Assembly: GCA_964566495.1 (NCBI GenBank) | Contig: CAZMIT010000002.1 | Coordinates: 1 to 48,000, forward strand | From: an uncultured bacterium | GTDB lineage: Bacteria; T1Sed10-126 | Length of the DNA stretch: 48,000 nt | Reading direction: 5' to 3' | Part shown: positions 18,806 through 41,033 of the stretch, in pieces | Layout of the letters: each line of letters starts with the position of its first letter | Numbering within the stretch: the first letter of the stretch is position 1 | The notes under the pieces: generated by a model | Database searches by the model: none | Told to the model about the DNA's origin: nothing | Seen by the model: only the letters and a program-made list of their open reading frames with translations | Program-made: the position numbers and the translations under genes

Positions 18806-19774
18806 TTGGAACTTGACAACTGGTTGGATACTAACACCTATCACCACTCGCGTTATAGCGATATAGAACGACTGCTGGATTTGAAGGAAAGGAAAGATTT
18901 GACGATTTCTGTCAGTCTCCCCACTCTGAACGAAGAGGAGACGATAGCAAAAGAAATAATTTTAATCCAGACGGAGTTGATGATTCAATACGACCTGGTT
19001 GATGAAATAGCAGTAATTGATAGTGGTTCTGAGGATAGAACACGAGAAATAGCCCGCAAATACGGTGCCTCAGTATTTCTGGCCAGCGACTACCTGAAAG
19101 AGGAAGGGGTTCACCAGGGGAAGGGGGAAAACCTCTGGAAAAGTCTCTATCTCCTCAAGGGCGATATAATTGTTTACCTGGACGCGGATATTAAAAACAT
19201 CGATCCGAAGTTTGTCTACGGTCTGGTTGGCCCCCTGCTTGAGCGGGAGGAATTAAGCTACGTTAAGGCTTTTTATGAGCGTCCGCTGCAGTTTGGTGAC
19301 GAGGTCAGGACTGGCGGCGGTGGTCGAGTTACAGAGATACTCGTAAGACCGCTGTTTAACATGTTTTTTCCAAAACTGGCCGGTATGATGCAACCGCTGT
19401 CCGGGGAATACGCCGGCCGTCGCAGTCTGCTTGAAAAGCTCCCGTTTTTTATTGGTTACGGGGTTGAGACAGGGTTGCTTATTGATATTAGTGAGCAGTT
19501 TGGAATAGAGAATATTGCCCAGGTCGACCTTGACAAGCGGGTGCACGAAAACCAGGACTTGCAGTCTCTTGGGAGAATGGCTTTTGGAATTTTACAGACC
19601 TTTTTCAGTCGGGCGGATGCGCTGGGCAAGGTAGAATTGAAAGAAGAGTTGCATCGGTTATACAAAAGTATTATTGCCTCCGGCGAAGAGTATGACCTGC
19701 GTGGCGAAGAGTTACGCGAGATTGAGCGACCGCCCATGGTGGAGCTTGAACAATACAGAGAAAAGTGGAAGTAG
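18806..19774 (+). CDS. gpgS: glucosyl-3-phosphoglycerate synthase (GT81)
   Basis: Block-by-block resemblance to my recollection of mycobacterial GpgS: LPTLNEEETI, GKGENLWKS, LVGPLL, VKAFYERPL, GGGGRVTEILVRPL, MQPLSGEYAG, GYGVETGLLID, IAQVDL, ERPPM. TTG start 9 nt after GGAGG. Confidence 0.8.
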   Translation: MELDNWLDTNTYHHSRYSDIERLLDLKERKDLTISVSLPTLNEEETIAKEIILIQTELMIQYDLVDEIAVIDSGSEDRTREIARKYGASVFLASDYLKEEGVHQGKGENLWKSLYLLKGDIIVYLDADIKNIDPKFVYGLVGPLLEREELSYVKAFYERPLQFGDEVRTGGGGRVTEILVRPLFNMFFPKLAGMMQPLSGEYAGRRSLLEKLPFFIGYGVETGLLIDISEQFGIENIAQVDLDKRVHENQDLQSLGRMAFGILQTFFSRADALGKVELKEELHRLYKSIIASGEEYDLRGEELREIERPPMVELEQYREKWK

Positions 19775-21707: not shown

Positions 21708-21860
21708 AATTCAACGCCACTGGATTCCCGCTTCCGCGGGAATGACAACGTGTGAATAGCCCGTCATTGCCGGACTTGATCCGGCAATCCAGCGATTTTG
21801 AAGTTGATCTTTAAATGGTTCAATTCAACTCCACCGGATTCCCGCTTCCGCGGGAATGAC
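21708..21860. repeat. three copies of the GTCAT-hairpin-ATCCA module (-, +, -)
   Basis: 21708-21746 (-), 21763-21807 (+), 21821-21860 (-). The two minus copies share the stem/loop CCCGC-GGAA-GCGGG. The plus copy has GCCGGA-CTTGA-TCCGGC. Confidence 0.9.
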
Positions 21861-22683: not shown

Positions 22684-22818
22684 GTCATTCCGGGCAAGCG
22701 ACCGTAGGGGGCGCGACCCGGAATCCAACTTGAATTTTAAGCGGTTATCGTTCAAGACCATCCCCCCTTTCTTTTCTCCCCGTCAAGGGGGAAAAAGATG
22801 AGGGCTTCGGTAGGTTGT
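22684..22818 (+). repeat. composite repeat: GTCAT-hairpin-ATCCA module, C-run/G-run hairpin module, CTTCGGTAGGTTGT module
   Basis: GTCATTCCGGG...CCCGGAATCCAACTTGAA (22684-22736); ATCCCCCCTTTCTTTTCTCCCCGTCAAGGGGGAAAAA (22760-22796); CTTCGGTAGGTTGT (22805-22818), identical to 29664-29677. Confidence 0.85.
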
Positions 22819-22915
22819 GGTGGAATAGAAGGTAAAGGTTACCTTCTGCGTCGCTTAATGATAGAATAGTTCCTTTGAAATTTGATTATAATCTAAGCTT
22901 TAGATAGAGGAGTGA

Positions 22916-24535: not shown

Positions 24536-26803
24536 ATGAATCAATCAGCTCCTGCAGTCGACGAGTCGGCCGGGGCGATTGAGTGGTGGCGTCGGTTGCC
24601 CGGCTGGCTTGAACATTCCACTCCCGAGAAATTTTTGCAGACGGTGAAGAATGAACTGAAGGATTTTAATCTCTACTTGCGACTGGCAGATGAGTCGGCG
24701 CCAGAAGGGGTCACCGGCAAGGTATTAAAATACACAGAAGACGGACTTGAACTGGAACTGATAATTGCTGACCGTGAAACTGTTGAGAACACCGGTCATT
24801 ATCACGGTTTGATGGCCTGGATAGCGGCTCGCTATGCTCGGCTTCGCGAACAGAAACACCGTGATTTCAATCGCCGCGCCGATGGTTTTTTAAGCGATTT
24901 TTTAGATCGCTACACTGCCTTTGGATCGGCGGTCACTCCCTATATGCTAGCCTCTGTGCTGGCAGAAGTATCGGTCAGGCATTTCAACCGGGAGATCAGT
25001 AGTTTTATTTTTTACAACGAAGATCCCCCCCACCAGGTTTTTGGAGAAGCGGAAAATTTCCCTGAAGCTGAAAAGTTTGAAACTCATGAGCCCCCCCTGA
25101 CGTCCGGTGACGGTTACCACTGGTTTCCAATTTACACTGAAAATTGTCTTTTAGCGTCGGTTGCTTATCAGGAGCGTTTCTGGCCGTCAATCCGGGTCGA
25201 TTACCTGGTTGATGTTTTTAACTGTATTGGTGACCGGCTGAGCGGTATGGCTGAAGCCAAGCCGCCCCGCCACCGAGTTTATGAACTGGGCCAAGCGATT
25301 GACTTAACTTCTGATCACCTGCGAACCAGTCGCGGTCTTGATTACATACTTCAGTCTTATGTAGATATGATTTTTGAAGTATTTGACTGTGACGTTTGCC
25401 GACTTTTTTGGCGCGAATCCGATCATGAACTTAAGTTGCGGGCCTCGACACCACCGGCCGAGGAAGAAAATACAATTATCATTGAGGAAGACCCGCTGAT
25501 TGAGTCGGTTATAAACGAAAGCAAAGGTGTGCTCATCAATAACGTTCCCGCCGCTGATGAAGAAACAGGTCGTGACGATGGCTTTCGAAGTTTTATTTCT
25601 GTTCCCCTGCGGTTGGAGGAACGAGTTATAGGTACTGTTAATATTTCATCGGAACGGGCTAACTCCTACACCGAGGAGCAACTGGCCCGGCTTTCCAGTT
25701 TCTGTGATCGGCTGGCCGGGATCTATTCTATCGCCCTGGATTTTGCTAATCTGACCGCCTACGTTGAAGAGCTATTGCTTGAATTGCCAGTTGGTGTGAT
25801 TAATATTCGCTTTGGCTCCTCGGAAGTTATATTAAATCCCGTCGCACGTCAGCTCCTTTCAATTCCTGCGGGACGACTTGGGGAGGAGGAGTTTGTTGAG
25901 CGAATCAAAAAACTTGATTCCGAGGAGTTAGTGAGTCTTGTTGGGGGGGCGAAAGAGGCTGATCTTGTAGGACCGGTAGACATCGAACTGGGCGGTGAAC
26001 AGAGCCACCCAACAGTAATATCAGCGCTTCGATCATACGTAAAAAATGTCTCGGGTGAAGTTATTGGGGCCATCATCGTTTTGTCCGATGTTACCGAACA
26101 GCGGCTCTTAAACCGGCAGATGAGTCGGACGGAAAGATTGACGGCTCTCGGCGAGCTCGCTTCCAGTCTTGCTCACGAGATAAAAACACCCCTGACTTCC
26201 ATTCACGGTTTTGCTCAGATGATTCCGAAAAAAATGGACCAACCTGAATTTCTTGAACGAATGTCTGAGGTTGTGCAAAGAGAAGCGGACCGGCTCAACT
26301 CTCTGGTTGAAAATCTGCTTTCTTTCGGCAAACCGCAGGTTGAGGAAAAAAGGCGGGTTAACATTCCGGACCTGGTTGAGGATGTGCGGGTTTTAGTGGA
26401 TAAAAAAATAGAAAAAAAGCAAGCCAGTCTAAAGGTGAAATTGCCGGATCAGTTGGAAGTAATGGGGGATGGCGCCAAGTTAAAACAGGTGTTCATCAAT
26501 CTTCTGCTCAATGCGCTTGATGCAGTTGAGCCGGACGGCGAGATCATTGTTCGTGGAGAAAAAACCGACGAGCGCTTTGTAAAAATTGAGGTGGTGGATG
26601 ACGGCGAAGGAATGGAGCCGGAAATTTTAAATAAGATATACAATCCTTTCTTTACCACCAAGTCCGAAGGATCCGGGCTCGGGCTGGCTATCACTCATAG
26701 AATTATTGAGGAACACGGGGGCGAGCTGGAAGTTAACTCGTCGCCCGGCGAAGGGACAGAAGTAAGCATTTTATTACCTGTTTTTGCGACGGGTGAGAGG
26801 TGA
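24536..26803 (+). CDS. cytoplasmic sensor histidine kinase (GAF-like and PAS-like regions, HisKA, HATPase_c)
   Basis: 755 aa with no obvious TM helices. H-box SLAHEIKTPLTSI; N and G boxes NLLLNALDA, DDGEGM, GSGLGLAI. Confidence 0.9.
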   Translation: MNQSAPAVDESAGAIEWWRRLPGWLEHSTPEKFLQTVKNELKDFNLYLRLADESAPEGVTGKVLKYTEDGLELELIIADRETVENTGHYHGLMAWIAARYARLREQKHRDFNRRADGFLSDFLDRYTAFGSAVTPYMLASVLAEVSVRHFNREISSFIFYNEDPPHQVFGEAENFPEAEKFETHEPPLTSGDGYHWFPIYTENCLLASVAYQERFWPSIRVDYLVDVFNCIGDRLSGMAEAKPPRHRVYELGQAIDLTSDHLRTSRGLDYILQSYVDMIFEVFDCDVCRLFWRESDHELKLRASTPPAEEENTIIIEEDPLIESVINESKGVLINNVPAADEETGRDDGFRSFISVPLRLEERVIGTVNISSERANSYTEEQLARLSSFCDRLAGIYSIALDFANLTAYVEELLLELPVGVINIRFGSSEVILNPVARQLLSIPAGRLGEEEFVERIKKLDSEELVSLVGGAKEADLVGPVDIELGGEQSHPTVISALRSYVKNVSGEVIGAIIVLSDVTEQRLLNRQMSRTERLTALGELASSLAHEIKTPLTSIHGFAQMIPKKMDQPEFLERMSEVVQREADRLNSLVENLLSFGKPQVEEKRRVNIPDLVEDVRVLVDKKIEKKQASLKVKLPDQLEVMGDGAKLKQVFINLLLNALDAVEPDGEIIVRGEKTDERFVKIEVVDDGEGMEPEILNKIYNPFFTTKSEGSGLGLAITHRIIEEHGGELEVNSSPGEGTEVSILLPVFATGER

Positions 26804-26812
26804 AAATTAAAA

Positions 26813-28171
26813 GTGTCTGATTTGGTGAAGGTTTATGTGATTGACGACGATCCCAGCATATGTCAGTTGTTTGAAGAAGCTCTTGGAGACAGCTACGATG
26901 TGACTTCATTCCAGGATGGTGAGTCGGGGATAGAGGCGATTGAGGAGTCAACCCCGGATGTGCTGCTGCTCGACATAATGCTGCCGGGGAAAGGGGGGAT
27001 GGAGATACTTGAGGAAGTGCGAGAAAAATTCCCGCGAGTTGTTGTGATAATGGTTACTGCCTATGACGACGTTGACACCGCTGTTCGCGCTGTCAAGCTG
27101 GGAGCACACGATTACATAGCCAAGCCTTTTGACCTCGAGGAGGTTGAGGTGACTATTGAAAAAGGATTGGAAAATCGTGAATTAAGGGAAGAGGTTAAAC
27201 AGCTGCGTTCTTTTCTTGAAGGTGATTATCAACACTCACCTCTGATCGGAGAAAGCCAGGCGATGGAAGAGGTTAAGCAGCGGATCGAAAAGGTGGTTGA
27301 CACTGACACGGCGGTTTTGATCCAGGGGGAGAGTGGGACGGGGAAGGAAGTTGTGGCCAACACTATACATTACAACAGCAGCCGGAGCGACCAGCCGTTT
27401 GTGGCGGTGAACTGCGCTGCTATTCCTTCTGATTTGCTGGAAAGCGAGTTGTTTGGACATAAAAAGGGGGCTTTTACCGGGGCGGAAGAGGACAAAAAGG
27501 GGAAAATTGAACTGGCTGACGGAGGCACCTTGTTTCTCGATGAAATCGGCGCAATGCCTTTGCCGATGCAGGCAAAAATGCTGCGGGTGCTCCAGGATCA
27601 GCAGGTCATGCCGGTCGGGGGCGAGGAGGCCAGACAGCTCGATTTTCGCTTGATCAGTGCAACCAGTTCGGAGATCGAAAAGATGGTTGAGGAGGAGCGC
27701 TTCCGACGTGATTTATACTACCGGATTAATGTCTTTGAAATAAAATTACCACCGTTAAGGAAAAGAAAAAAGGACATCCCTGTATTTTGTAATTATTTTC
27801 TCCAGGAAATAAGCAAAAAAGTGGAGAAAGAAGTGAACGATATTAGTCCGGAGGCGATGGAAATTTTAACCTCTCACGATTGGCCGGGAAATGTTCGTGA
27901 GTTGCGAAACGCCCTTGAAAGTGCTGCCGTGGTTGCTGAAGAGGAGGTGCTTCAACCCGGTGATTTTGATCTGCTGAAAGGATCCCGGGAACGGGCGGCG
28001 GGCGAACAGTCAATCCTGGAGGAGGGTCTCTCCCTACAGGAAGCCGAAGAAAAGCTTGTTGAAGCCACTTTAAAAAGATATGACGGCAACATAACCCGGG
28101 CTGCTAAAGAGCTGGGTATTACTCGAAAAACTCTACGTAAAAAAAGAGATGATTACGGAATTGAGGTGTAG
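26813..28171 (+). CDS. sigma-54-dependent response regulator (NtrC family enhancer-binding protein)
   Basis: REC domain (DVLLLDIMLPG), AAA+ Walker A GESGTGKE, GAFTGA loop (GHKKGAFTGA), C-terminal Fis-type HTH (ITRAAKELGITRKTLRKK). GTG start after a GAGAGGTG RBS. Confidence 0.9.
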   Translation: MSDLVKVYVIDDDPSICQLFEEALGDSYDVTSFQDGESGIEAIEESTPDVLLLDIMLPGKGGMEILEEVREKFPRVVVIMVTAYDDVDTAVRAVKLGAHDYIAKPFDLEEVEVTIEKGLENRELREEVKQLRSFLEGDYQHSPLIGESQAMEEVKQRIEKVVDTDTAVLIQGESGTGKEVVANTIHYNSSRSDQPFVAVNCAAIPSDLLESELFGHKKGAFTGAEEDKKGKIELADGGTLFLDEIGAMPLPMQAKMLRVLQDQQVMPVGGEEARQLDFRLISATSSEIEKMVEEERFRRDLYYRINVFEIKLPPLRKRKKDIPVFCNYFLQEISKKVEKEVNDISPEAMEILTSHDWPGNVRELRNALESAAVVAEEEVLQPGDFDLLKGSRERAAGEQSILEEGLSLQEAEEKLVEATLKRYDGNITRAAKELGITRKTLRKKRDDYGIEV

Positions 28172-28176
28172 TAGCC

Positions 28177-29565
28177 GTGCAGTTTGAAACAGTAATCAGA
28201 GGAGGAAAAATTTATACCGGTCAAGATTGTTTCCGGGGCGATATTGGGATACGGGAGGGAAGCATCGCTGCTATAGCAGCTGAGCTATCTTCCGGGGAGG
28301 AGAAAACTATCGACGCCCGCGGTATGGAGGTGCTGCCGGCGGCGGTGGATCCCCACGTTCATTTCAATCTTGAGCTTCCTCTTTTGGATATAAGCTCCCG
28401 GGACAGCTATTGGACCGGAGGGCGAGCGGCGGCCCGGGGAGGCCTGACCACTGTTCTTGATTTCAGCGAACAGCGCCCGGGTGAACAATTAATTGCCGGC
28501 GTGGAGAGAAAAATTGAGCAGGCACGGGGAAACTCGCCGATCGACTATGGAATTCATCCGACAGTATACGATTGGGACCCCCGGCTGCTGGATGAAATTG
28601 AAAAGCTGGTTGAGGCGGGGTTCCCAACCCTGAAAATGTTTATGATTTATTCGGAAGAAGGCTGGCGCTCCCCGGAACCGGCGCTGCTGGAGGCGATGCG
28701 CCGGGCCTCTGAAGTCGGAGCCACTATTTTGGTTCACTGTGAAAACGATAAGCTGCTTGGATATTTTACCGAACAGGTGGCAGCCAGCGAAAATGAGGTC
28801 GGTGCCTACGGTCTGGCTCTGTCGCGTCCGAATGTCGTTGAGGCAAGCGCCGTTCAGCGAGCTGTTGACCTCTGTGAACACGTTGATGGCCGGCTTTACG
28901 TCGTCCACCTTTCGACTGCTGAGGGGGCCCGGTGCCTCAAAAAGGCGCAAAAACGGGGAGTCGATGTTACGGTCGAGACCTGTCCGCAGTTTTTACTCCT
29001 GACAGAGGAAAAATTGCAGGGCGAGGAAGGCCATCTCTTTGCCGCCTCCCCGCAGCTTAAGTCAACAGCTGATAACGAGGCTCTCTGGCAAGCCCTGGAG
29101 TCTGATGTAATCGACGTGATTGGCACCGATAATTGTACTTTTAACCGCCAGCAGAAAGATCTCTGGGAAGGAGATTTCCGCAAAATCCCCCGGGGACTGC
29201 CCGGCTGTGAGACACTATTTCCCTTGATATACACTCATGCCTATCGTCGCCGGGGTTGGCCTTTGAACGAGGTCGTTAGAAAAACCAGCCTGCTTCCTTC
29301 TCGTGCTCACGGTTTATATCCGGACAAAGGTTCGCTGCAGCCGGGTACCGATGCCGATATCATTGTTATTGATCCCCAAAATAGTCTTACCGTTAACCCG
29401 CAATCATTGCTCACTGACTCTGACTGGTCTCCCTACGAGGGTTTTGAACTCTACGGTTTCCCCGAGTATACAATCTGTCGGGGTAAAGTAGTGGTGGAAG
29501 AAGGAGAGATAATCGAGTCAATGCGCGGTCATGGCAAGCTTGTTCGACGATCACCCGTGGGGTAG
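28177..29565 (+). CDS. cyclic amidohydrolase (dihydropyrimidinase / D-hydantoinase family)
   Basis: 462 aa. DPHVHF (HxH), LKMFMIY (carbamylated-Lys context), VHCEN, VVHLST, GTDNC (Asp). GTG start only 5 nt after the regulator's stop. Confidence 0.85.
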   Translation: MQFETVIRGGKIYTGQDCFRGDIGIREGSIAAIAAELSSGEEKTIDARGMEVLPAAVDPHVHFNLELPLLDISSRDSYWTGGRAAARGGLTTVLDFSEQRPGEQLIAGVERKIEQARGNSPIDYGIHPTVYDWDPRLLDEIEKLVEAGFPTLKMFMIYSEEGWRSPEPALLEAMRRASEVGATILVHCENDKLLGYFTEQVAASENEVGAYGLALSRPNVVEASAVQRAVDLCEHVDGRLYVVHLSTAEGARCLKKAQKRGVDVTVETCPQFLLLTEEKLQGEEGHLFAASPQLKSTADNEALWQALESDVIDVIGTDNCTFNRQQKDLWEGDFRKIPRGLPGCETLFPLIYTHAYRRRGWPLNEVVRKTSLLPSRAHGLYPDKGSLQPGTDADIIVIDPQNSLTVNPQSLLTDSDWSPYEGFELYGFPEYTICRGKVVVEEGEIIESMRGHGKLVRRSPVG

Positions 29566-29580
29566 AATTTGCAGAATTAT

Positions 29581-29677
29581 ACAACCTATCGAAGCATCTT
29601 CCCCTCAGCCTTTTACTGGGAAAGAGCTGGGTTAAGGGGAGAGGGGAAGGAATTTTAGAACCCCTTCGGTAGGTTGT
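29581..29677. repeat. 97-nt extended imperfect hairpin closed by ACAACCTATCGAAG / CTTCGGTAGGTTGT
   Basis: 29581-29594 pairs with 29664-29677 (13 Watson-Crick pairs plus one T-G). Inner CTTCCCCTC (29598-29606) pairs with GAGGGGAAG (29641-29649). Confidence 0.8.
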
Positions 29678-29696
29678 AAGAAGAATTAAAAAATAT

Positions 29697-29725
29697 TTGA
29701 CAGCGTTTGAGTTACCTTTTATAAT
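29697..29725 (+). promoter_or_regulatory. perfect consensus sigma-70 promoter (TTGACA-17 nt-TATAAT)
   Basis: TTGACA at 29697-29702, exactly 17-nt spacer, TATAAT at 29720-29725, counted base by base. Confidence 0.75.
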
Positions 29726-29731
29726 ACTTAC

Positions 29732-29817
29732 CCTATAAATCCCCAATCCCCTCTTAAAGCCCTTCCCCACCAAAAGCCGGCTCCGGAAAACCGGGGCCGG
29801 CGTTTTTTCTTTTTTTT
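29732..29817 (+). ncRNA. candidate ~85-nt C-rich small RNA (promoter plus intrinsic terminator, no ORF)
   Basis: The predicted start lies about 7 nt after the -10 box. The body CCCUAUAAAUCCCCAAUCCCCUCUUAAAGCCCUUCCCCACCAAAA has no start codon and ends in the terminator at 29776-29817. Confidence 0.5.
29776..29817 (+). terminator. rho-independent terminator
   Basis: GCCGGCTCCGG (29776-29786), loop AAAA, CCGGGGCCGGC (29791-29801): 11 bp including one G-T. Followed by GTTTTTTCTTTTTTTT (29802-29817). Confidence 0.85.
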
Positions 29818-29942
29818 GACTGTAACCTTTCAACGTTATCCCAGGTAGGGCCTCCCGGAGCATCTCCCAGCCAAGCAACGTCATGCCCGACTTGCTCCGG
29901 CACAGGTAATGATGAAAGCGTTGGTGGTTAGGGGCTTGATCC

Positions 29943-30157
29943 CGGTCTATTCATGAAGCCCTATGAATAGACCGCCTGTAAGGCCGCCCATTCTAAGAAT
30001 GGGCGGGGTTAACCCAGCCGTTTACAGAACAACTGGAAAACTACAGCATGTAGAAATAACTAAACTGGCAAATAATTATTTAATCCTCACACGAAGCTGA
30101 TAAACGGCTGTCCTGTGGATGAACTATTCACGACAATCATGCTGTCGTGAATAGTTC
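29943..30157. repeat. cluster of three perfect hairpins plus one long-range 10-bp inverted repeat
   Basis: H1 29943-29974 (12 bp, CGGTCTATTCAT/ATGAATAGACCG). H2 29984-30006 (10 bp, CCGCCCATTC/GAATGGGCGG). Long-range pair CAGCCGTTTA 30015-30024 with TAAACGGCTG 30101-30110. H3 30121-30157 (15 bp, GAACTATTCACGACA/TGTCGTGAATAGTTC). H1 and H3 share CTATTCAYGA. Confidence 0.85.
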
Positions 30158-30176
30158 AGGTTGATGGGTTCTGTCG

Positions 30177-30205
30177 TTGACATTTAGGGGTTGTTTTCAT
30201 AGAAT
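30177..30205 (+). promoter_or_regulatory. candidate sigma-70 promoter of the pilus motor operon (TTGACA-17 nt-TAGAAT)
   Basis: TTGACA 30177-30182, 17-nt spacer, TAGAAT 30200-30205. Lies 58 nt upstream of the pilB TTG start. Confidence 0.6.
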
Positions 30206-30262
30206 TATTTATCAATGCTCCGGGTTATAAGACAGATGACTCTTTTCTGGAGGTAACTTTAA

Positions 30263-32023
30263 TTGCCCGTTCAGAAGAAAAAACTTGGTGAAATACTTAT
30301 CTCCGCCGGGTTAATCACCGAAGACCAACTCAACGAAGCGCTTGAAGAGCAGGAAGAGTCTGGTGAGCGCCTGGGTAAAATATTGAAAGACCTGGGGTAT
30401 ATAAAGGGGATTGAACTGGCAGCAGCCCTCTCCACCCAGCTAAACATACCTTATGTAAGTCTCTCCGACTACAATTTATCCGAGGAACTGGCTGAAGTCA
30501 TCCCCGAAGACGTGGCCCGGGAGAGGCGACTCATACCGATTGAAGAGCTTGAAGACCAGGTTGTGATAGCTGTTGCTGACCCCTTAAACGTAGCGGCCAT
30601 GGATGAAATCAAGATGATGGTCGGCAAGGCCGTCGAGCCGGTTATTGCGGCCGAGGAAGAGATTAACAATGCGATGGGCGACATTTATGGTTCTGCCGAT
30701 CAAATTTCCGGCGTAATTGAGGATATGACCGAAGACGACGTGGATATTGTCTCGGACCAGGGGCCGGAGGTTGGGCAGGATATCGAAGAACAGGTTAACG
30801 AGACGCCGGTGATCAAGCTGGTCAATATGATCCTGCTGGAAGCGATAAAAAATCGCGCCAGTGATATTCACCTGGAGCCGTTTGAACACCGGTTTGTGGT
30901 TCGCATCAGAATTGACGGTGTCCTGCAGGAACTGAATCCGCCGCCTAAGGAATTGCAGTCGGCTGTCATCTCCCGGGTGAAGGTAATGGCCGATCTGGAT
31001 ATCGCTGAGACCCGGTTGCCGCAGGACGGCAGAATTCGATTGCAGTTGAGCGGCCAGGTGCTTGACTTTCGGGTAAGCACAATTCCCACCGTTTTTGGTG
31101 AGAGTGTTGTTCTGCGGCTTTTGAGCCAGGATGACATTGACCTCGAAACGGATGTGCTCGGTTTTATTCCGGAAGTGGAGGATCGCTTTCAGGAGATTAT
31201 TGAAAGACCTAATGGCATAGTTCTTGTTACTGGTCCTACGGGTTGCGGAAAGACTACGACGCTTTATGCCGGTTTAAACCATATCAACAATCCGGAGGAT
31301 AAAATAATTACGATGGAGGATCCGGTTGAATATGAGCTGCCCGGTTTAATCCAGTGCCAGGTGAACGAAGAGGTTGGCTTTACTTTTGCCTCCGGGCTAC
31401 GTTCCATTTTGCGCCAGGACCCGGATATCTGTCTCGTCGGTGAGATTCGTGACGTTGAGACGGCGGAAATTGCCGTCCAGGCCTCTCTGACCGGGCACCT
31501 TGTAATGTCCACCACCCATACTAACGAGGCGGCGGGAGCAATCACTCGTCTTGTTGACATGGGAGTGCAGCCTTTTCTGCTCACTTCCACCATCCAGGCC
31601 ATTGTGGCTCAGCGGCTGGTTCGTCTGATCTGTGAAGAGTGTCGCGAGGAGTATGAACCCGATCCTGACGATTTGCGACAGTTGGGTAAGGACCCCGCCG
31701 AGTGGGCAGATCATAATTTTACCCACGGGACAGGTTGTGAAAACTGTGGCGACACCGGTTTTCGGGGACGTACCGGTATATTTGAACTGCTGGAGATGTC
31801 AAAGGGAGTCAGTGAGCTCGTCAATGAACGTGCCTCGGCTGAACAGATCTTTCAGCAGGCGACCGACGAGGGAATGATACCGATGCGTGATGATGGCTGG
31901 CAGAAGGTAGTTGACGGACAGACGACGATTGAGGAAGTGCTGCGCGTCGCCCCCGTTGAATCTGGTGTTTCTATTGAAATCTCGGAGGAAGACTTTGACG
32001 AGGAGTTCGCCCAATACCTGTGA
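30263..32023 (+). CDS. pilB: type IV pilus / type II secretion assembly ATPase (PilB/GspE/MshE family) with an intact MshEN-type N-terminal domain
   Basis: 586 aa, TTG start after GGAGG. Walker A GPTGCGKTT, tetracysteine CEEC...CENC. The N-terminus carries two 24-residue MshEN motifs (see findings). Confidence 0.9.
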   Translation: MPVQKKKLGEILISAGLITEDQLNEALEEQEESGERLGKILKDLGYIKGIELAAALSTQLNIPYVSLSDYNLSEELAEVIPEDVARERRLIPIEELEDQVVIAVADPLNVAAMDEIKMMVGKAVEPVIAAEEEINNAMGDIYGSADQISGVIEDMTEDDVDIVSDQGPEVGQDIEEQVNETPVIKLVNMILLEAIKNRASDIHLEPFEHRFVVRIRIDGVLQELNPPPKELQSAVISRVKVMADLDIAETRLPQDGRIRLQLSGQVLDFRVSTIPTVFGESVVLRLLSQDDIDLETDVLGFIPEVEDRFQEIIERPNGIVLVTGPTGCGKTTTLYAGLNHINNPEDKIITMEDPVEYELPGLIQCQVNEEVGFTFASGLRSILRQDPDICLVGEIRDVETAEIAVQASLTGHLVMSTTHTNEAAGAITRLVDMGVQPFLLTSTIQAIVAQRLVRLICEECREEYEPDPDDLRQLGKDPAEWADHNFTHGTGCENCGDTGFRGRTGIFELLEMSKGVSELVNERASAEQIFQQATDEGMIPMRDDGWQKVVDGQTTIEEVLRVAPVESGVSIEISEEDFDEEFAQYL

Positions 32024-32060: not shown

Positions 32061-33779
32061 ATGGACGCCGGTAGATTAATAGAGTCCCTGGTTGAAAAGA
32101 AAAAATTGACCCCCGAAGAAGGGGATGAAGTGTTGACCCGCGGGGAGACGACCGGAGAAGAAGTTCTTGCTATAATCACACGGGAATTTGAGATAGATCG
32201 AAAGGAAACCCTGGAAACTTATGCCCATAGTTATGGGATGGAATTTGTTGATCTATCCGACGCCGAGCCAATCGATGACGCTGACGAAATTATTGACTCC
32301 GCAACGGCTCAACAGTATTTTGTTTTTCCCTACGAAAAGACATCAACCTCTCTGAAACTGGCTGTTGCCGAACCCCCCGACTTGCGTATGATGGATGATT
32401 TAGAAGCTATCCTGGAGATGCCTATCGAATGTTCGCTGGCCGATCCGGAGGAATTAGAGGAGTTAATTACCACCTATTATGGCACCTCGATGGATGATAT
32501 TGACAACGTGCTGGATGAGCTGGGAGAAGAAGACCTGGTACACGTCGAGGAAGAGGATGAGGAGGCAGATGTTGCGGAGCTGGAGGAGCAGGCGGAAGAG
32601 GCACCGGTAATTAAGCTGGTAAATATGATTATAATGGAAGCTGTTCAACGGGGGACCAGCGACATTCACATTGAACCCCTCGAGGGACGATTGCTCGTTC
32701 GCTACCGCATTGACGGGGTCCTGCATAAAGCACACGAACCCCCGAAGCGACTGCAGGGGGCGATTGTTTCGCGGATAAAGATAATGTCGGAGATGGATAT
32801 TGCCGAACGGCGTATACCTCAGGACGGGCGGATCAAGTTAAAGATGATGGGGAAGGAACTTGATTTTCGGGTTAGCTGTCTGCCCGGTATTCACGGCGAG
32901 AGCGTCGTACTTCGAATTCTTGACAAGGAATCTGTGAATATCGGCCTGGAAACGCTGGGATTTCTACCGGATAATAAGGCTATATTTGACAAATTGATTC
33001 GCAAACCGAACGGGATTATTCTGGTCACCGGTCCGACCGGTTCGGGTAAGACGACGACCCTGTATTCTGCTTTGCAGGAACTTAATACGCCGGACCGCAA
33101 GCTGATTACGATTGAGAACCCGGTTGAGTATCAGCTGGAAGGCATAAACCAAATGCAGGTGAACGACGAGATCGGGCTGGATTTTTCACGGGGATTGAGT
33201 TCACTGCTCCGCCAGTCGCCGGACGTTATTCTTGTCGGGGAAATACGTGACTACGAGACGGCCGAGACGGCAATACGGGCGGCTCTCACCGGTCACCTGG
33301 TCTTTTCGACACTGCATACCAACGATGCCCCCAGCGCCGTGAACCGCCTGGTTGACCTTGGTGTCAACGCTTACCTGATCAGCTCGGCCGTGCAGGCTAT
33401 TATGGCCCAGCGCCTGGTCCGGAAAATTTGTGACAACTGTAAGGTTGAATACGAGCCGGAGATGGAATATATCCACCGAGTCGGATTCCCAGAGGAAGAC
33501 GTTGAAGAGACGACTTTCTATCAGGGAGAAGGCTGTGAAAATTGCAACATGACCGGCTATACCGGTCGGACCGCTGTCTTTGAAATGATGGTTACTAACG
33601 AACAAATGAAGGATATGATACTTGAAGGCTGTACGACTAACGAGCTGCGCGATGTGGCCATCGATAGCGGCATGAGGACCCTGCGCCAGGACGGCTTCAT
33701 CAAGGTTAAGATGGGCGACACGACGCTGATGGAAGTCGCCCGGGTAACTCAGGCCCACGGAACCGCGGCCGCGGTGTAA
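32061..33779 (+). CDS. second PilB/GspE-family assembly ATPase paralog
   Basis: 572 aa, AGGAGG RBS. Walker A GPTGSGKTT, tetracysteine CDNC...CENC. The N-terminal domain is diverged. Confidence 0.9.
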   Translation: MDAGRLIESLVEKKKLTPEEGDEVLTRGETTGEEVLAIITREFEIDRKETLETYAHSYGMEFVDLSDAEPIDDADEIIDSATAQQYFVFPYEKTSTSLKLAVAEPPDLRMMDDLEAILEMPIECSLADPEELEELITTYYGTSMDDIDNVLDELGEEDLVHVEEEDEEADVAELEEQAEEAPVIKLVNMIIMEAVQRGTSDIHIEPLEGRLLVRYRIDGVLHKAHEPPKRLQGAIVSRIKIMSEMDIAERRIPQDGRIKLKMMGKELDFRVSCLPGIHGESVVLRILDKESVNIGLETLGFLPDNKAIFDKLIRKPNGIILVTGPTGSGKTTTLYSALQELNTPDRKLITIENPVEYQLEGINQMQVNDEIGLDFSRGLSSLLRQSPDVILVGEIRDYETAETAIRAALTGHLVFSTLHTNDAPSAVNRLVDLGVNAYLISSAVQAIMAQRLVRKICDNCKVEYEPEMEYIHRVGFPEEDVEETTFYQGEGCENCNMTGYTGRTAVFEMMVTNEQMKDMILEGCTTNELRDVAIDSGMRTLRQDGFIKVKMGDTTLMEVARVTQAHGTAAAV

Positions 33780-33926: not shown

Positions 33927-34979
33927 ATGGACGTTTTTGACCTTATGCAGATGTGCATAGACCAGGATGCCTCGGACATTCATTTGACCGTGGGAACCAA
34001 GCCAGTGTTACGGGTTGACGGGGGAATTAAAAAGGTGGACGAAGCTGAAAAATTAACCCCCCAGGACACCGAAAAGATGGTTAAGGCTGTCGCGCCGGAC
34101 GAACACCTGGAAAAGCTGGCCAAGGCCGGCCAGAGTGACTTTGGTTACGAAATGGAGGACGGCAACCGTTTCCGGGTCGCTATTTTTAAACAGCAAAAAT
34201 ACGCCGGCATGGTTATGCGGCTTATTCCTAAAAAAATATTTACTTTTGAAGAGCTGGGGTTGCCTTCAAAAATGAAGGAAATTTGCACCTACCCCCGGGG
34301 AATAGTTCTCGTCACCGGGCCTACCGGTTCCGGGAAAACCACCACCCTGGCCGCTTTTATCGATTATATAAATTCTAACTTTGGCAAGCATATAATTACA
34401 ATCGAGGACCCGATAGAATTTAAACATCCGCACAAGCAGTCGATTATAACTCAGCGTGAACTGGGTGTCGACGTGCTCTCGTTTAGCGACGGCATCCGTT
34501 CCGGCCTGCGTATGGACCCTGACGTTATGCTGGTCGGTGAGATGCGCGACCAGGAGACAATCGGTGCCGCGATAACCGCCGCTGAGACCGGTCACCTCGT
34601 TTTTGCAACTCTGCATACTAACAGTGCCGCACAGACGGTCAACCGGATTATTGATACTTTCCCCCAGGAAGAACAGTCCCAGGTGCGTTCGCAGCTTTCA
34701 ATCACACTGACTTCGGTCATCTCCCAGACGCTAATGCCCTTAAAGAGTGGCACCGGACGGACTGCGGCTTTTGAAATAATGATTGCAACACCCGGAATTC
34801 AGAATTTGATTCGCGAGAAGAAGGAACAGAACATCCCCTCGGCCATTCAGACCGGTGGCAACCTGGGCATGCAGACTCTTGACCAGCACCTGCAGCAGCT
34901 TTACCAGCGCGGTAAAATTTCCTACGACGAGGCTGTTGCCAACGCCCAGAACGCCGAGGAACTGAAGAAAAAATTGTAA
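33927..34979 (+). CDS. pilT: twitching-motility (retraction) ATPase PilT
   Basis: 350 aa. ASDIHL, GPTGSGKTT, and PGIQNLIRE (variant of the AIRNLIRE PilT signature). Confidence 0.9.
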   Translation: MDVFDLMQMCIDQDASDIHLTVGTKPVLRVDGGIKKVDEAEKLTPQDTEKMVKAVAPDEHLEKLAKAGQSDFGYEMEDGNRFRVAIFKQQKYAGMVMRLIPKKIFTFEELGLPSKMKEICTYPRGIVLVTGPTGSGKTTTLAAFIDYINSNFGKHIITIEDPIEFKHPHKQSIITQRELGVDVLSFSDGIRSGLRMDPDVMLVGEMRDQETIGAAITAAETGHLVFATLHTNSAAQTVNRIIDTFPQEEQSQVRSQLSITLTSVISQTLMPLKSGTGRTAAFEIMIATPGIQNLIREKKEQNIPSAIQTGGNLGMQTLDQHLQQLYQRGKISYDEAVANAQNAEELKKKL

Positions 34980-35024: not shown

Positions 35025-36242
35025 ATGCCTACTTTTGAATATCAGGCGATGGATTCCAGCGGTCAGGAGGTCTCGGGCCGGATTGATGCGGCCAGCGAAA
35101 GTGCTGCCGTCTCCGACCTGAAAGACCAGGGTTACCGGCCCTTTGAAGTCAATGAGGTCTCCACTGGCGACTTCGACATCTTGGATTATATTCCACTGAT
35201 TGGCGGTACTCCGGTAAGTGGTGAGGAGGTTGCCCTGTTCACCAGGCAGATGGCGACCCTGCTGGACGCCGGACTGCCGCTGCTGCGGGCCGTCAACGTC
35301 CTGAAAGAGCAGACAGAGAACGAGGATTTTCAACAAATACTGGGCCAGATTGCCCAGGACATCCAGGGAGGAGCCAGCTTCAGCGAGGCCCTGAAAGCAC
35401 ATCCCGACGTCTTCGAAGAGCTTTACATTAACATGGTCAAGGCGGGTGAGGTCGGTGGAGTGATGGAACAGGTGCTTGACCGGCTGGCTGATTTTGCCGA
35501 GTCCGCACAGGAGCTGCGGATGAAGATTAAGTCGGCAACCATGTATCCGGCTATTATGTTTGGCATAGCAATCCTGGTTGTATCTTTTCTGCTGGTATTT
35601 GTTCTGCCCACCTTTATCGACCTTTTCTCTGAGATGGGAGTCGATTTACCGTTGCCGACTCGAATTGTAATTGGTTTGAGTAATTTCCTCCAGCATCGCT
35701 GGTATGTGGTTATTATTGCTGCCATCGGTGGCTTTTATGGTTTGAAGTGGTATTATGGAACTGACCAGGGAGAATACAATATTGATAAAATGAAAATAAA
35801 CATGCCCATTTTCGGGACGCTATTTCGGAAGGTAGCCGTGGCTCGCTTCGCTCGCACTCTATCAACGCTGATTCAGAGCGGGGTTCCGATACTGCAGGCG
35901 ATTGAGATTGTCCAGGACACTATCGGCAATCGAGTTGTCTCTGAAGTTATGGATGACGTCTACGACAGTATCAGCGAGGGTGATACAATTAGTGAGCCGC
36001 TGGCTGAATCGGGTGTCTTCCCCCCAATGGTCACCAACATGATATCGGTCGGGGAAGAGACCGGTAATCTCGACGGTATGCTCAGCCGCGTCGCCGACAC
36101 CTATGAGATGCAGGTCGACGAGATGGTCGAGGGGCTCAGTTCAATGCTCGAACCGATTCTTATTCTTTTTATGGGGATTATGGTCGGGACAATCGTCATG
36201 GCCATGTTCTTCCCGATGTTCCAATTGATCCAGGTGGTCTGA
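35025..36242 (+). CDS. pilC: type IV pilus platform protein PilC (GspF family)
   Basis: 405 aa with a duplicated GspF domain, three hydrophobic segments, and blocks LATLLDAGLPLLRA and LSTLIQSGVPILQA. Confidence 0.9.
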   Translation: MPTFEYQAMDSSGQEVSGRIDAASESAAVSDLKDQGYRPFEVNEVSTGDFDILDYIPLIGGTPVSGEEVALFTRQMATLLDAGLPLLRAVNVLKEQTENEDFQQILGQIAQDIQGGASFSEALKAHPDVFEELYINMVKAGEVGGVMEQVLDRLADFAESAQELRMKIKSATMYPAIMFGIAILVVSFLLVFVLPTFIDLFSEMGVDLPLPTRIVIGLSNFLQHRWYVVIIAAIGGFYGLKWYYGTDQGEYNIDKMKINMPIFGTLFRKVAVARFARTLSTLIQSGVPILQAIEIVQDTIGNRVVSEVMDDVYDSISEGDTISEPLAESGVFPPMVTNMISVGEETGNLDGMLSRVADTYEMQVDEMVEGLSSMLEPILILFMGIMVGTIVMAMFFPMFQLIQVV

Positions 36243-37213: not shown

Positions 37214-37269
37214 CCCCACCGCCCCATCGCCCCACCGCCCCCTCGCCCCATCGCCCCACCGCTCCACCG
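37214..37269 (+). repeat. tandem octanucleotide repeat, 7 units of CCCCAYCG-like sequence
   Basis: CCCCACCG CCCCATCG CCCCACCG CCCCCTCG CCCCATCG CCCCACCG CTCCACCG, in the 75-nt gap between the binding-protein stop (37206) and the kinase ATG (37282). Confidence 0.9.
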
Positions 37270-37281: not shown

Positions 37282-39237
37282 ATGTTACCTGACAAACTGG
37301 CTGACAGTCGGGCGACTGGCCTGCTCTCCTTCTTCGGCTATTTTCTTGCAATCCTGGTTCTCTTTGTTTTATTTTCCCATTTTGTCCCGGTTGTCGACGA
37401 GCTGGTCGGCTGGTTCTGGCTTGCCTTTTTTCTCTTTTTATTTTTTGTGCTCGAGCCGCTCTACCGCCGTTTTACCGATCGTTTTGAATATCACGTGCTG
37501 GTCCTTGAGTTTTACCTGTTTAGCGTCTACCTCGTCCATCTCTTTTTCCCCGAGCTTGACTACGTCCACCTTTTTTACTTGATCCCTATTTTTTCGGCCG
37601 CTTTAAGTTTCGGCCTCCTCGGGACAATGCTTACAGCTTCCGCGGCTTTTCTGCTTGAAACTGTTCGTGTTTCACCCCCCTGGGCTTTTGAACTCGAGGC
37701 CCTGCAGCCAATCCTTCCCTCAATTCTACCACTTTTCATCCTTGCCCTGTTGCTCGGTTTTACGGTCGAGCTAAAAAATTACACACAGCGCCAGCTTCTT
37801 AACCGGCTTTCAAAAATGGATACTTTTCAGGCACTGCGGCGGGTTGTTGACACCACTGGTGAATTATTTCCCTTTACCAAAGAGCTGCTGCAGACGGTTG
37901 TGCAAATTTCGGAAGTTAGCGGCGGGATGTTTGTCGAGAGCAAAGCGGAAACCATCGTTGTCTCTGTCAACCTGGAAGCGGAAGAAAAAGAACAACTCTT
38001 AAAAGCCCGGCGGGAAGAGCTTGATAGCCACAGTGGCAGGGAAATATATCGAATTAAATTACCCTGGGCCGAGAAATCTTATGAAATGGTACTCTGGGGC
38101 TCACGTCTGCAGGGCATTCTCAAGCGGGCCGAGCGAGAGATGATACGCGCCCTGGCCATATACCTGGAGCACTTTGTTGACAACCTGCGCACACAACACG
38201 AGAAAGAACGGGCCTACCGCCTGCGCGAGGCTTTGATTGAAGCGGTGCCCCTGGGTATCGTTGTCACCGATAACCGCGGTGTTGTCGTTGAGATCAACCG
38301 CCACGCCGGCGAGCTGATCGGACTGACGGCGGCGGACGTGGTCGGTTGCCGGTTTGAGGAGGTTTTTAATTTTTCTGAAGACGAGATTAATCTGGCTGAA
38401 GTTCGTTGTGAAACGGAACTGGTTGTTGAGCGTATAGATTGTGAGACAATTCCGGTAGATCTATCAATTACTGAGGCCGAGTTTGGTCCCGGCCAGGCGG
38501 GCCAGTGGATAGTTGTCTTTTCCGACTTGCGGCCTCTGAAAAAACTACAGGAACAGGCCGAACGCCGCCGGCGACTGTTGGCCCTGGGTGAGTTTGCGGC
38601 CGGTATGGCTCACGAGATCAGAAACCCGCTTGGCAGTCTCTCCGGCTTTATTTCTCTGCTTCAACAGAAGGTTGAAGCGCTGCCGGGGGGAACCGACGTT
38701 GAAAAATTGATCGAGAAGATTAGAAATAGCTACAATCGGGTTGACGAGCTGGTAGAAAATTTTCTGCTCTACGCGCGTAAACCGGAAATTGAGGTTGAAA
38801 AAGTCAACCTGGCAAAATTCCTTGAGTCCTGGATTGCCGATATAAGTCCCCCTGAAGGCATTAGTCTGGAGACAGATTTCAGTGATCTCGATGGATTTGT
38901 GACCGCTAATCGCTCGCGCTTTCGCACGGCGCTTGACAATTTAATTCGTAACGCCGCCGAAGCTACGGGCGGCGAGGGCACGGTGCGGGTGGAAGCCCAC
39001 TCCCGGGGAAATGAGGCTCTGATCGCGGTTGAGGATGATGGCGAGGGTTTTGATCAGCAGCTACTTGAGCGGGCTTTTGAACCTTTTGTCTCTGGCAAAG
39101 AGGAGGGGCTGGGACTGGGACTGGCAATAGTTCACCGGATAATTAGCGAAGAAATGGACGGAGAGTTGGAACTATCGTCCCCGGCTGGAGAGAGGACGCG
39201 AGTCACGATTCACTTGCCCCTGCAACCACAAGATTGA
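37282..39237 (+). CDS. membrane sensor histidine kinase, PilS-like architecture (multi-TM N-terminus, PAS, HisKA, HATPase_c)
   Basis: 651 aa with about six hydrophobic helices in the first ~170 aa and no large periplasmic loop. H-box GMAHEIRNPLGSL; NLIRNAAEA, DDGEGF, GLGLGLAIV. No Shine-Dalgarno visible upstream (C-rich repeat instead). Confidence 0.85.
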   Translation: MLPDKLADSRATGLLSFFGYFLAILVLFVLFSHFVPVVDELVGWFWLAFFLFLFFVLEPLYRRFTDRFEYHVLVLEFYLFSVYLVHLFFPELDYVHLFYLIPIFSAALSFGLLGTMLTASAAFLLETVRVSPPWAFELEALQPILPSILPLFILALLLGFTVELKNYTQRQLLNRLSKMDTFQALRRVVDTTGELFPFTKELLQTVVQISEVSGGMFVESKAETIVVSVNLEAEEKEQLLKARREELDSHSGREIYRIKLPWAEKSYEMVLWGSRLQGILKRAEREMIRALAIYLEHFVDNLRTQHEKERAYRLREALIEAVPLGIVVTDNRGVVVEINRHAGELIGLTAADVVGCRFEEVFNFSEDEINLAEVRCETELVVERIDCETIPVDLSITEAEFGPGQAGQWIVVFSDLRPLKKLQEQAERRRRLLALGEFAAGMAHEIRNPLGSLSGFISLLQQKVEALPGGTDVEKLIEKIRNSYNRVDELVENFLLYARKPEIEVEKVNLAKFLESWIADISPPEGISLETDFSDLDGFVTANRSRFRTALDNLIRNAAEATGGEGTVRVEAHSRGNEALIAVEDDGEGFDQQLLERAFEPFVSGKEEGLGLGLAIVHRIISEEMDGELELSSPAGERTRVTIHLPLQPQD

Positions 39238-39332
39238 AGGTACTTGTTTAGCCCGGTCCTGACAAAATATTCCGAGTTTCGTCATCTCGGGCTAGTGCTT
39301 GGTCACAGTCGAAAATGTGACTGCTTCTGGTT

Positions 39333-39645
39333 GTCATTCTCGTGGAAGCGGGAATCCAGTGGCGTTGAATTTCTGATGGTCTAAAGTCAAAGTCACTGGA
39401 TTGCCCAATCAAGTTGGGCAATGACGATCGTTAGGTCAGGTTCGTTCTTGAACTTGACGTCATCCCGGCCCCCGAGCCGGGATCCATCTTGAACTTGATC
39501 TTGATTTTCGGTCTTGCGCCTCTTCGCCCGTTCGCAAGCTCGCCTCTTCGAGCTCTCCCCCCGAGGGAGAGGACCCGGCCTCCGAGCCGGAATCCATCCC
39601 CCCTTTCCTTTTCCCCCCTTGAAGGGGGGGAAGACAAAGGGGGGT
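39333..39645. repeat. mosaic array of hairpin modules between the kinase and regulator genes
   Basis: GTCAT-hairpin-ATCCA copies at 39333-39372 (+), 39384-39425 (-), 39459-39493 (+) and 39572-39597 (+, 5' truncated). TTGAA/TTGAT periodic stretch 39488-39510. CTCTCCC/GGGAGAG hairpin 39553-39571. Nested C-run/G-run hairpin 39596-39645. Confidence 0.9.
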
Positions 39646-39698
39646 GCAAGTGAGAAGTAAATTAGAGAGCAAAACAATTCAAAAACGGAGGAAAAACA

Positions 39699-41033
39699 AT
39701 GTCCAATCAGACGGTTCTTGTCGTCGAAGACGACGAAATGATGCGCGATTTTCTCTGTCAGGCACTTGAGACCTACGACTACCGGCCTCTTGCTGCTGCC
39801 GATGCCAGGGCTGGCCTGGAGCTCTTCCGCAGCGATGCCCCCGACCTGGTTGTTGTCGACATTCGTATGCCCGGCGCCTCTGGACTTGACTTTCTCGACG
39901 AGCTGCGAAACGAAGACCAGCGCGTCCCCGTCGTCATGGTTACCGCCTACGGCGACACCGACACAGCCGTCACGGCTCTCCGCCGGCAGGCCGACGATTT
40001 TTTACAGAAACCGTTTGAAGCAGAGGAATTTATCCAGGCGATTGAGCGCCAGTTTAAAAGACAGAAGCGCACCGATCTGGCCGCCCGGGCCGACAGCTTT
40101 AGTCTCGTCTACGAGAGCGAGCAGATGCAGCAACTTGTCGACTACGCCCGCCGCATTGCCCCTAAAACCGATCCCGTCCTGATTGAAGGTGAGAGTGGCG
40201 CTGGCAAGGAGGTCTTCGCCCGCTTTATCCACTACCAGGGTCCCCGCGGCGAGACCCCGTTGGTTACCGTCAACTGCGGCGCTATCCCCGGTGAGTTGCT
40301 GGAAAGTGAACTTTTTGGTCACACCGAGGGCGCTTTTACCGGCGCCAGCTCCGACCGACAGGGACTCTTTCAAACCGCCGATGGTGGCACGGTTTTGCTT
40401 GATGAAATTGGTGATCTACCGCTTGAACTTCAGTCTAAACTTCTGCGCGTCCTGGAAAACAATCAGGTCCGTCCCGTTGGAAGTGACAGCTCAATTTCGG
40501 TCGACGTCCGCGTTCTTGCCGCCTCTAACCGAGACCTTGAGTCGATGGTCGACCGCGGTGAATTTCGTGATGACCTCTTCTACCGTTTGAATGTCTTTGC
40601 GCTGCGCGTTCCACCGCTGCGCGAACGACCAGCCGATATACCCGTTCTTGTCCGTTACTTTTTAGACCAGATGGGTCTCGATCTTGAAATATCGGCGTCG
40701 GCTCGGGAGCTGCTGACTGCTTACAACTGGCCCGGGAACGTTCGCGAATTGAAGAACTTGCTCCGTCGCCTCCAGGCTCTCGACGTGGGGACAGTTCTGG
40801 AACCGGAAAACTTACAAGCAGTCGGGCTTACTGCGTCGGAAAGTGATTTCGCTGAAGCAGGCTTCGATTTCCCCCCGGACCCCGACCTGGATACAATGCT
40901 TCGCCAGTTAAAACGTCGTTATATAGAACAGGCGCTGGAGCAGACCGGGGGCAATAAATCAGCCGCCGCCGATCTGCTCGGCATGAACCGCACCACCCTC
41001 GTCGAAACCATCAAACGCCTGGACCTTGATTAA
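39699..41033 (+). CDS. sigma-54-dependent response regulator, PilR-like
   Basis: REC (DLVVVDIRMPG), Walker A GESGAGKE, GAFTGA (GHTEGAFTGA), C-terminal HTH (NKSAAADLLGMNRTTLVETIKR). GGAGG RBS. Confidence 0.9.
   Translation: MSNQTVLVVEDDEMMRDFLCQALETYDYRPLAAADARAGLELFRSDAPDLVVVDIRMPGASGLDFLDELRNEDQRVPVVMVTAYGDTDTAVTALRRQADDFLQKPFEAEEFIQAIERQFKRQKRTDLAARADSFSLVYESEQMQQLVDYARRIAPKTDPVLIEGESGAGKEVFARFIHYQGPRGETPLVTVNCGAIPGELLESELFGHTEGAFTGASSDRQGLFQTADGGTVLLDEIGDLPLELQSKLLRVLENNQVRPVGSDSSISVDVRVLAASNRDLESMVDRGEFRDDLFYRLNVFALRVPPLRERPADIPVLVRYFLDQMGLDLEISASARELLTAYNWPGNVRELKNLLRRLQALDVGTVLEPENLQAVGLTASESDFAEAGFDFPPDPDLDTMLRQLKRRYIEQALEQTGGNKSAAADLLGMNRTTLVETIKRLDLD

Follow-up and report, generated by a model that had tools for sequence, protein, structure and literature searches.

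The 48-kb stretch of DNA analyzed here (the window) carries, between an amidohydrolase gene and a cluster of type IV pilus genes, a consensus promoter that is followed at a short distance by an intrinsic terminator. Does this element give rise to an RNA of its own, or does it belong to the pilus genes downstream, to the amidohydrolase gene upstream, or to the repeats of this genome? A first-pass annotation had proposed a small RNA with a C-rich tract and had offered the attenuated leader of the pilus operon as the alternative. The features described below support an independent promoter-to-terminator unit without an open reading frame (ORF), and, as far as can be judged from sequence, the element is very probably a real, selected transcription unit. 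As the best explanation, in which we have slightly better than even confidence, we propose a new, lineage-restricted small RNA (sRNA) whose unpaired C/U-rich tract would pair with G-rich RNA sites in the manner of RsaE/RoxS, sX13, and RepG, but outside those families.

Promoter, C-rich tract, and terminator

The promoter lies on the plus strand, as do all parts of the element, and consists of the −35 hexamer TTGACA (29697..29702) and, 17 nt after it, the −10 hexamer TATAAT (29720..29725). It had been described as a perfect consensus promoter, and indeed, TTGACA-17-TATAAT (29697-29725) is the sole 12/12 match in the window. Shuffles of the window gave an expectation of 0.03 for 12/12 promoter sites with spacers of 16 to 18 nt, and the chance expectation of 0.006 given earlier, which applies to a spacer of exactly 17 nt, is arithmetically correct. 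We infer that an RNA is made from this promoter; transcription would start at about 29732, for a predicted length of ~85 nt in the window and 60 to 95 nt in relatives.

The predicted RNA begins with a variable 5′ leader (29732..29755); in alignment A1, 15 to 40 nt lie between the −10 box and the core of the element, and the leader sequence is unrelated between lineages and cannot be aligned (alignments A1 and A2). The leader is followed by a conserved unpaired tract, AAAGCCCUUCCCCACCAAAA (29756..29775), with the proposed seed GCCCUUCCCCACC at 29759-29771. The terminator was found where the first-pass annotation had placed it, about 50 nt downstream of the promoter, and comprises an 11-bp GC-rich hairpin, GCCGGCUCCGG-AAAA-CCGGGGCCGGC (29776..29801; 10 G-C pairs and one U.G pair), and, directly 3′ of it, the T-tract GTTTTTTCTTTTTTTT (29802..29817).

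The RNA from ~29732 to 29817 is predicted to fold into an unpaired 5′ part of 44 nt and the hairpin, with a free energy of −25.3 kcal/mol (z = −3.3), and 0 of 200 shuffles folded as stably. The C-runs, which had been thought to be unpaired, lie within this single-stranded 5′ part of the predicted fold; they number five of at least three bases (CCC, CCCC, CCCC, CCC, and CCCC) and not four, as counted before. The enclosed sequence had been said to lack a start codon, and ATG, GTG, and TTG are all absent between the predicted start and the T-tract. ORFs on the minus strand over the element have no counterpart in relatives, and neither the leader nor the flanks are conserved.

Conservation of the element in relatives

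Seven instances of the element were compared: the window, L081/L082/L090, L001, L083, L084+L002, L089, and L102. L084+L002 and L102 represent one lineage, and the seven instances therefore correspond to about five lineages, about four besides that of the window. The promoter, part of the C-rich tract, and the terminator are kept in every close relative with sequence spanning this intergenic region. The −35 hexamer is invariant in 7/7 instances (alignment A1, with L102 compared separately), and the −10 boxes of the relatives read TATAAT, TACAAT, TATACT, or TAGGAT, with T1, A2, and T6 of the hexamer invariant, at a spacing of 16 to 18 nt.

The closest instance, L081/L082/L090 (amidohydrolase 86% identical to that of the window), has TTGACA-17-TATAAT 15 nt past the stop codon, a similar leader, an identical core, and a T-tract. 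In L001 (PilB 82%, amidohydrolase 63%), TTGACA-17-TACAAT lies 24 nt past the stop codon, core and T-tract are identical, and only 15 nt separate the −10 box from the core, which leaves a leader of roughly 8 nt. L083 (amidohydrolase 63%) has TTGACA-18-TATAAT, 40 nt of unrelated sequence from the −10 box to the core, and a core with one extra A. L084 and L002 derive from one genome (amidohydrolase 63%, PilB 76%), and their contigs overlap by 55 nt inside the element; the promoter is TTGACA-16-TATACT, the T-tract is weak, and the core differs by an A-to-U change at the last unpaired base and a swap of C-U to U-C in the stem. The same variant is present without a contig break in L102 (amidohydrolase 61%), with the promoter 8 nt past the stop codon. 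In L089 (amidohydrolase 63%), the amidohydrolase gene and the element are separated by an acetyltransferase gene, and the element has TTGACA-17-TAGGAT and an identical core. Amidohydrolase homologs that are more distant (48 to 52% identity; L086 to L088 and L103 to L105) are found in a different gene order, and the element was not found there.

A core of 47 nt, made up of AAAGCCCUUCCCCACCAAAA and the hairpin, is nearly invariant in all instances and identical in four lineages. Apart from the positions marked as alternatives, the consensus T[A/G]AAAGCCCTTCCCCACC(A)AAA[A/T]GCCGG[CT/TC]CCGGAAAACCGGGGCCGGCG does not vary (alignments A1 and A2); within the unpaired tract, the only changes are the extra A in L083 and the A-to-U at the last position in L084/L002/L102. 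A T-tract follows in the window, L081, L001, L083, and L089 and is weaker in L084/L002/L102 (GATATTTATGT in L002, GATATTTTATGT in L102). The C-runs to which attention had been drawn are thus conserved in part: the last block, GCCCUUCCCCACC, is kept, whereas the first three are shared with L081 and, beyond it, only partly with L084/L102.

The extent of this conservation becomes apparent from the neighboring genes. Between lineages, the amidohydrolases are 55 to 64% identical as proteins, with an identity at third codon positions of 0.35 to 0.41; the corresponding values for PilB are 76 to 82% and 0.40 to 0.44, and the intergenic flanks of the element cannot be aligned. The silent sites of the neighboring genes are saturated, and an identical intergenic block of 47 nt must therefore be under strong selection. 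In the hairpin, 66/66 pair cells are paired (11 pairs in 6 sequences), and the sole variation of the stem is the replacement of C-G/U.G by U.G/C-G at two neighboring pairs. The stem changes pass through G.U wobbles, which fits a constraint at the level of RNA rather than DNA; there is no double-sided compensatory change, and the structure is therefore unproven by covariation. Centroid folds of the predicted RNAs leave the seed unpaired and form the hairpin in 6/6 cases.

The conservation of the hairpin and its loop exceeds the needs of a terminator, and a protein could be the partner of the RNA, instead of or besides a pairing target. In the main rival to our explanation, the RNA is real but acts by binding a protein (a poly(C)-binding, KH, or cold-shock-type protein, a chaperone, or a component of the pilus locus) and not by pairing with mRNA; hairpin and C/U-rich tract would be the recognition site, and the RNA would sequester, scaffold, or deliver the protein. 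We consider this unlikely, though worth retaining. Nine of the 11 pairs and 4/4 loop bases never vary, while the silent sites nearby are saturated, and the constant position of the element beside the pilus ATPase genes and two sigma-54 two-component systems would suit such a role. However, slow evolution is to be expected of any perfect GC-rich stem, in which a single change already disrupts the pairing, each RNA has one copy of the motif compared to several sites in known protein-sponge RNAs, and no candidate partner was identified. In another reading, for which we see rather little probability, the RNA would be no ordinary mRNA-pairing regulator but either the RNA component of a ribonucleoprotein of its own or a specific mimic of another molecule, and it would thereby control functions of the pilus or the surface; this is suggested by a tract and hairpin that are frozen in sequence across the lineage and always located within a cluster of type IV pilus and sigma-54 regulator genes. 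As for what might be mimicked, the tract CUUCCCC-A-CCA resembles the 3′ acceptor end of tRNA and could imitate it.

Position between the amidohydrolase and pilus genes

All genes neighboring the element are on the plus strand. A GAF histidine kinase (24536-26803) and a sigma-54-dependent response regulator (26813-28171) are followed by the upstream amidohydrolase (28177..29565), which was assigned to the dihydropyrimidinase type by a Pfam match. Downstream are a first pilB-like ATPase gene (pilB, 30263-32023, with a TTG start), a second pilB-like ATPase gene (32061-33779), pilT (33927-34979), and pilC (35025-36242), and a second pair of kinase and sigma-54 regulator is encoded 3′ of pilC. The element keeps its position in the interval between the amidohydrolase gene and pilB in all carriers, despite insertions on either side.

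Some features of this cluster are noted in their own right. The genes pilB-pilB-pilT-pilC, in which pilB is duplicated in tandem, are flanked by the two pairs of histidine kinase and sigma-54 response regulator (24536-28171 and 37282-41033), and no pilin gene was seen in the window. Furthermore, seven tandem 8-nt units (CCCCACCG / CCCCATCG) at 37214-37269 occupy a gap of 75 nt between the stop of an ORF resembling a phosphonate-binding protein (37206) and the start of a histidine kinase (37282).

The pilus operon begins some 530 nt downstream of the element, as had been stated (TTG of pilB at 30263), and in the window, L081, L089, L002, and L102, the element is located 5′ of pilB on the same strand. 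A leader that attenuates the pilus operon, with transcripts that stop at the hairpin unless a signal permits read-through into pilB, has therefore to be considered, and the weak T-tract of the L002/L102 lineage makes some read-through plausible there. Against the leader, which the first-pass annotation had put forward, stands the finding that pilB has a near-consensus promoter of its own, TTGACA-17-TAGAAT (30177..30205, plus strand), 3′ of the element. Equivalents are present 3′ of the element in L081, L089, L001, L002, and L102, so that in every case a promoter separates the element from the start codon of pilB. In L081, it is TTGACA-17-TAAAAT, ~10 nt after the terminator; in L089, the gene pilB after the element has its own TTGACA-17-TACAAT. 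L001 has two more ORFs (370 and 381 amino acids; one of the two looks glycosyltransferase-like on our reading of the L001 sequence), ~2.9 kb in total, between the element and pilB, and its pilB promoter is TTGACA-17-TACAAT. In the window, a spacer of 359 nt with several hairpins (29818..30176, plus strand) extends from the terminator to the pilB promoter; it is specific for the window, not conserved, and outside the conserved element. Neither an alternative, antiterminating pairing was predicted, because the C-tract stays unpaired, nor did Rfam return a match to a riboswitch or leader family. Taken together, a leader of pilB is very unlikely.

The opposite connection, to the gene upstream, is closer. 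In L081, L001, and L102, the −35 box lies 8 to 24 nt past the amidohydrolase stop codon, with no terminator in between, and the hairpin of the element probably also ends the upstream amidohydrolase mRNA. The element may then be mainly the shared terminator and untranslated 3′ end of the amidohydrolase operon, with a promoter that yields a by-product or serves insulation or the loading of polymerase before the pilus genes, and without any function in trans. We regard this as improbable. A terminator does not require the invariant unpaired tract of 20 nt upstream of it, and terminators normally diverge fast at such an evolutionary distance. In L089, moreover, the upstream gene is the acetyltransferase gene, and the core is still identical. 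Finally, the −35 box is invariant and the −10 box is kept at a varying distance from the core, which points to selection for transcription of the unit itself.

Copy number and repeats

REP-like hairpin repeats with C-runs and G-runs abound in this genome, and the contigs L084 and L002 break inside the element, with the overlap of 55 nt that can signal a repeat. The element might accordingly be a copy of a dispersed repeat or the end of a mobile element, with incidental promoter and terminator features. This is the least probable of the explanations considered, and we give it hardly any weight: a single copy of the core is present in the 48-kb window, with no other in the 772 kb of sequence searched, it has the same chromosomal position in all carriers, and the sequence of L102 runs uninterrupted through the L084/L002 junction. 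A covariance model built from six cores found no other or diverged copy in the 772 kb beyond the known instances. A scan of 241 million metagenome records with the exact pattern CCCTTCCCCACCAAAN{1,2}GCCGG retrieved no core besides the one in the contig of L081; 10 further matches fall in the coding sequence of an unrelated enzyme, where they encode a Q-P-F-P-T-K-P-P motif. Two scans of viral contigs and a BLAST search of plasmids gave one chance match in a coding sequence (L101) and nothing else. What had been feared in the first-pass annotation, one more copy of a dispersed repeat whose promoter is not conserved in relatives, is thus not what we found: the element is a single-copy sequence with a conserved promoter.

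The repeats themselves are located outside the conserved element. Between the amidohydrolase stop codon and the promoter, the window has an insertion of ~130 nt (29566..29696, plus strand), in which a G-run-containing REP-like hairpin (CTTCCCCTC ... GAGGGGAAG) and the motif CTTCGGTAGGTTGT, found again at 22806-22819, are located; L081, L001, and L102 lack this insertion. It contains the G-rich stretch GGGGAGAGGGGAAGG at 29636-29650, one base off the coordinates given earlier, to which the C-runs had been said to be complementary. This complementarity is no part of what is conserved in the element, since the repeat at 29636-29650 was inserted only in this genome and not in L081, L001, or L102.

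Other repeats were observed in passing. A hairpin element of 62 nt, GATAAACGGCTGTCCTGTGGATGAACTATTCACGAC...GTCGTGAATAGTTCAGG, at 30099-30160, just 5′ of the pilB promoter, recurs with 93.5% identity in the relative of 86% identity (L090:12850-12911, minus strand), where it lies upstream of the ortholog of the window gene 18806-19774 and not of pilB. Possibly, this hairpin is a small module that is mobile or has a regulatory role. REP-like intergenic hairpin repeats with C6/G6-runs (TCCCCCCTTT..CCCCCCTTSAAGGGGGG) are found at 2700-2748, 22761-22801, 39597-39644, and 41791-41831. A second family (AATTCAACGCCACTGGATTCCCGC..GCGGGAATGAC) is present at 21708-21746, 21822-21860, and, inverted, 39330-39372 and also at the end of a contig of a relative of 59% identity (L085:5800-5848), and hence, it is spread across the lineage. 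In an ORF of 885 amino acids at 2712-5369, DHH/DHHA1 and CBS domains occur together with poly(A)-polymerase/CCA-adding head domains; the true start of this ORF is uncertain because the listed GTG start falls inside a repeat element.

Search for targets and proposed mode of action

If the C-rich tract is a seed, G-rich complements are to be expected in target RNAs, and the first-pass annotation had suggested Shine-Dalgarno sites. Searches by pattern, duplex energy, and G-motif gave no support for this in the window. Besides the opposite strand of the element itself, the window has three sites complementary to the seed with at most two mismatches, compared to 5.3 expected, and none of them is at a gene start. 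Duplexes of the seed with 38 translation-initiation regions had a mean energy of −8.7 kcal/mol and were no better than those of shuffled seeds (−9.1 kcal/mol). The gene starts of the window have a plain GGAGG without G-runs, and an extended G-rich site was found at 1/35 of them, compared to 9% of background windows of 30 nt. No seed-complementary target was found in the window or in the loci of the relatives. The absence of an mRNA target from the sequence searched speaks for the protein-binding alternative, but this is weak evidence, given that the window has only ~38 genes. If the RNA acts by pairing, its targets would be specific sites elsewhere in the genome and not Shine-Dalgarno sequences in general.

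For the sRNA that we favor, we envisage the following working. Transcription would be driven by the near-consensus promoter through the housekeeping sigma factor. The 5′ leader, variable in length and sequence, would come first, followed by the conserved C/U-rich tract of 13 nt, GCCCUUCCCCACC, which A-runs on both sides would hold single stranded. The strong intrinsic terminator would end the RNA and, in most relatives, probably the amidohydrolase mRNA as well. The exposed tract would serve as the seed for target RNAs encoded elsewhere in the genome, with which it would pair at G-rich stretches (close to GGUGGGGAAGGG), and this pairing would alter the translation or stability of the targets, as described for the C-rich sRNAs RsaE/RoxS, sX13, and RepG. 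The base-pairing mechanism is drawn by analogy to these sRNAs, and we advance it tentatively, with a confidence that reaches even at most. Like the production of the RNA and its start site, the pairing with G-rich targets is a prediction.

Phylogenetic context

Ribosomal protein S1 (11329-13077), with six S1 domains, gave an indication of the lineage. Its relatives down to 45% identity are found only in metagenome-assembled genomes, and named phyla follow at 39% or less, a pattern that points to a deep lineage without cultured members. For PilB, two relatives were found at 82% and 76% identity, after which the identity falls to 52%. The contigs of the closest relative come from two JGI samples, one of which, SL_8KL_010_SED, we read as soda-lake sediment. 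If expressed, the RNA would join the very small number of candidate regulatory RNAs described from a deep bacterial lineage that is known through metagenomes alone. The near-invariant core of 47 nt also lends itself as a convenient sequence marker for the lineage.

Comparison with known RNAs

At gathering score, Rfam returned no family for the whole window. At E ≤ 10, seven weak matches were obtained for 29400-30400, with RsaE not among them; the best was rli38 (E = 0.38), and it was driven by the terminator. The likeness to RsaE/RoxS that had been pointed out before does not extend to membership in the Rfam family, whose model gave no match.

Some further comparisons were rejected. An RNA is associated with pilE in Neisseria, and by analogy, a G-quadruplex or i-motif was considered; however, only the window and L081 have four G/C-runs, too few runs remain in the conserved core, and the template strand would be the one rich in G. 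The sequence CCCCACCA suggested a tRNA remnant or integration site, but no T-arm-like sequence precedes it, and ARAGORN found no tRNA or tmRNA gene. A sponge of the CsrA type was dismissed because the only GGA is at the stem-loop junction.

DapZ and MicL of enterobacteria are sRNAs that share their terminator with an upstream mRNA. Similarly, the element has its own promoter near the end of the upstream gene and probably shares its terminator with that gene. In contrast to DapZ and MicL, its promoter does not lie within the coding sequence but just past the stop codon, the gene upstream of it can differ (L089), and there is no homology.

Closer in proposed function are the C-rich sRNAs. RsaE/RoxS use unpaired C-rich motifs for base pairing with G-rich sequences that coincide with ribosome-binding sites or are close to them (PMC4409812, PMC6158497). 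Like RsaE/RoxS, the element is short, has an intrinsic terminator, is strongly conserved over large distances, and is predicted to be transcribed independently. RsaE/RoxS have several CCCC motifs, whereas the element has one conserved C/U-rich tract, CCCUUCCCCACC, and this tract is in a linear stretch and not in loops.

The C-rich motifs of sX13 from Xanthomonas are directed at G-rich motifs close to the start of translation, and the regulon includes type IV pilus genes (PMC3771888); the element, in turn, is located among type IV pilus genes. In sX13, the C-rich sequences form the apical loops of three stem-loops, whereas the element has a single hairpin with an AAAA loop and a linear unpaired tract, and no sequence or model match between the two was found.

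A C/U-rich region of RepG from Helicobacter pylori pairs with a G-repeat in an mRNA leader (PMC8295292). This region is the loop of the terminator hairpin, whereas the terminator loop of the element is AAAA in all instances, and there is no homology. The genome studied here also has many G-runs in intergenic repeats, but those in the window are themselves paired within hairpins and not conserved beside the element.

In sum, the element resembles a familiar type of sRNA and introduces no new principle. If expressed, it would be another independent case, besides those in Bacillota, Xanthomonas, and Helicobacter, of a C-rich seed that pairs with G-rich targets.
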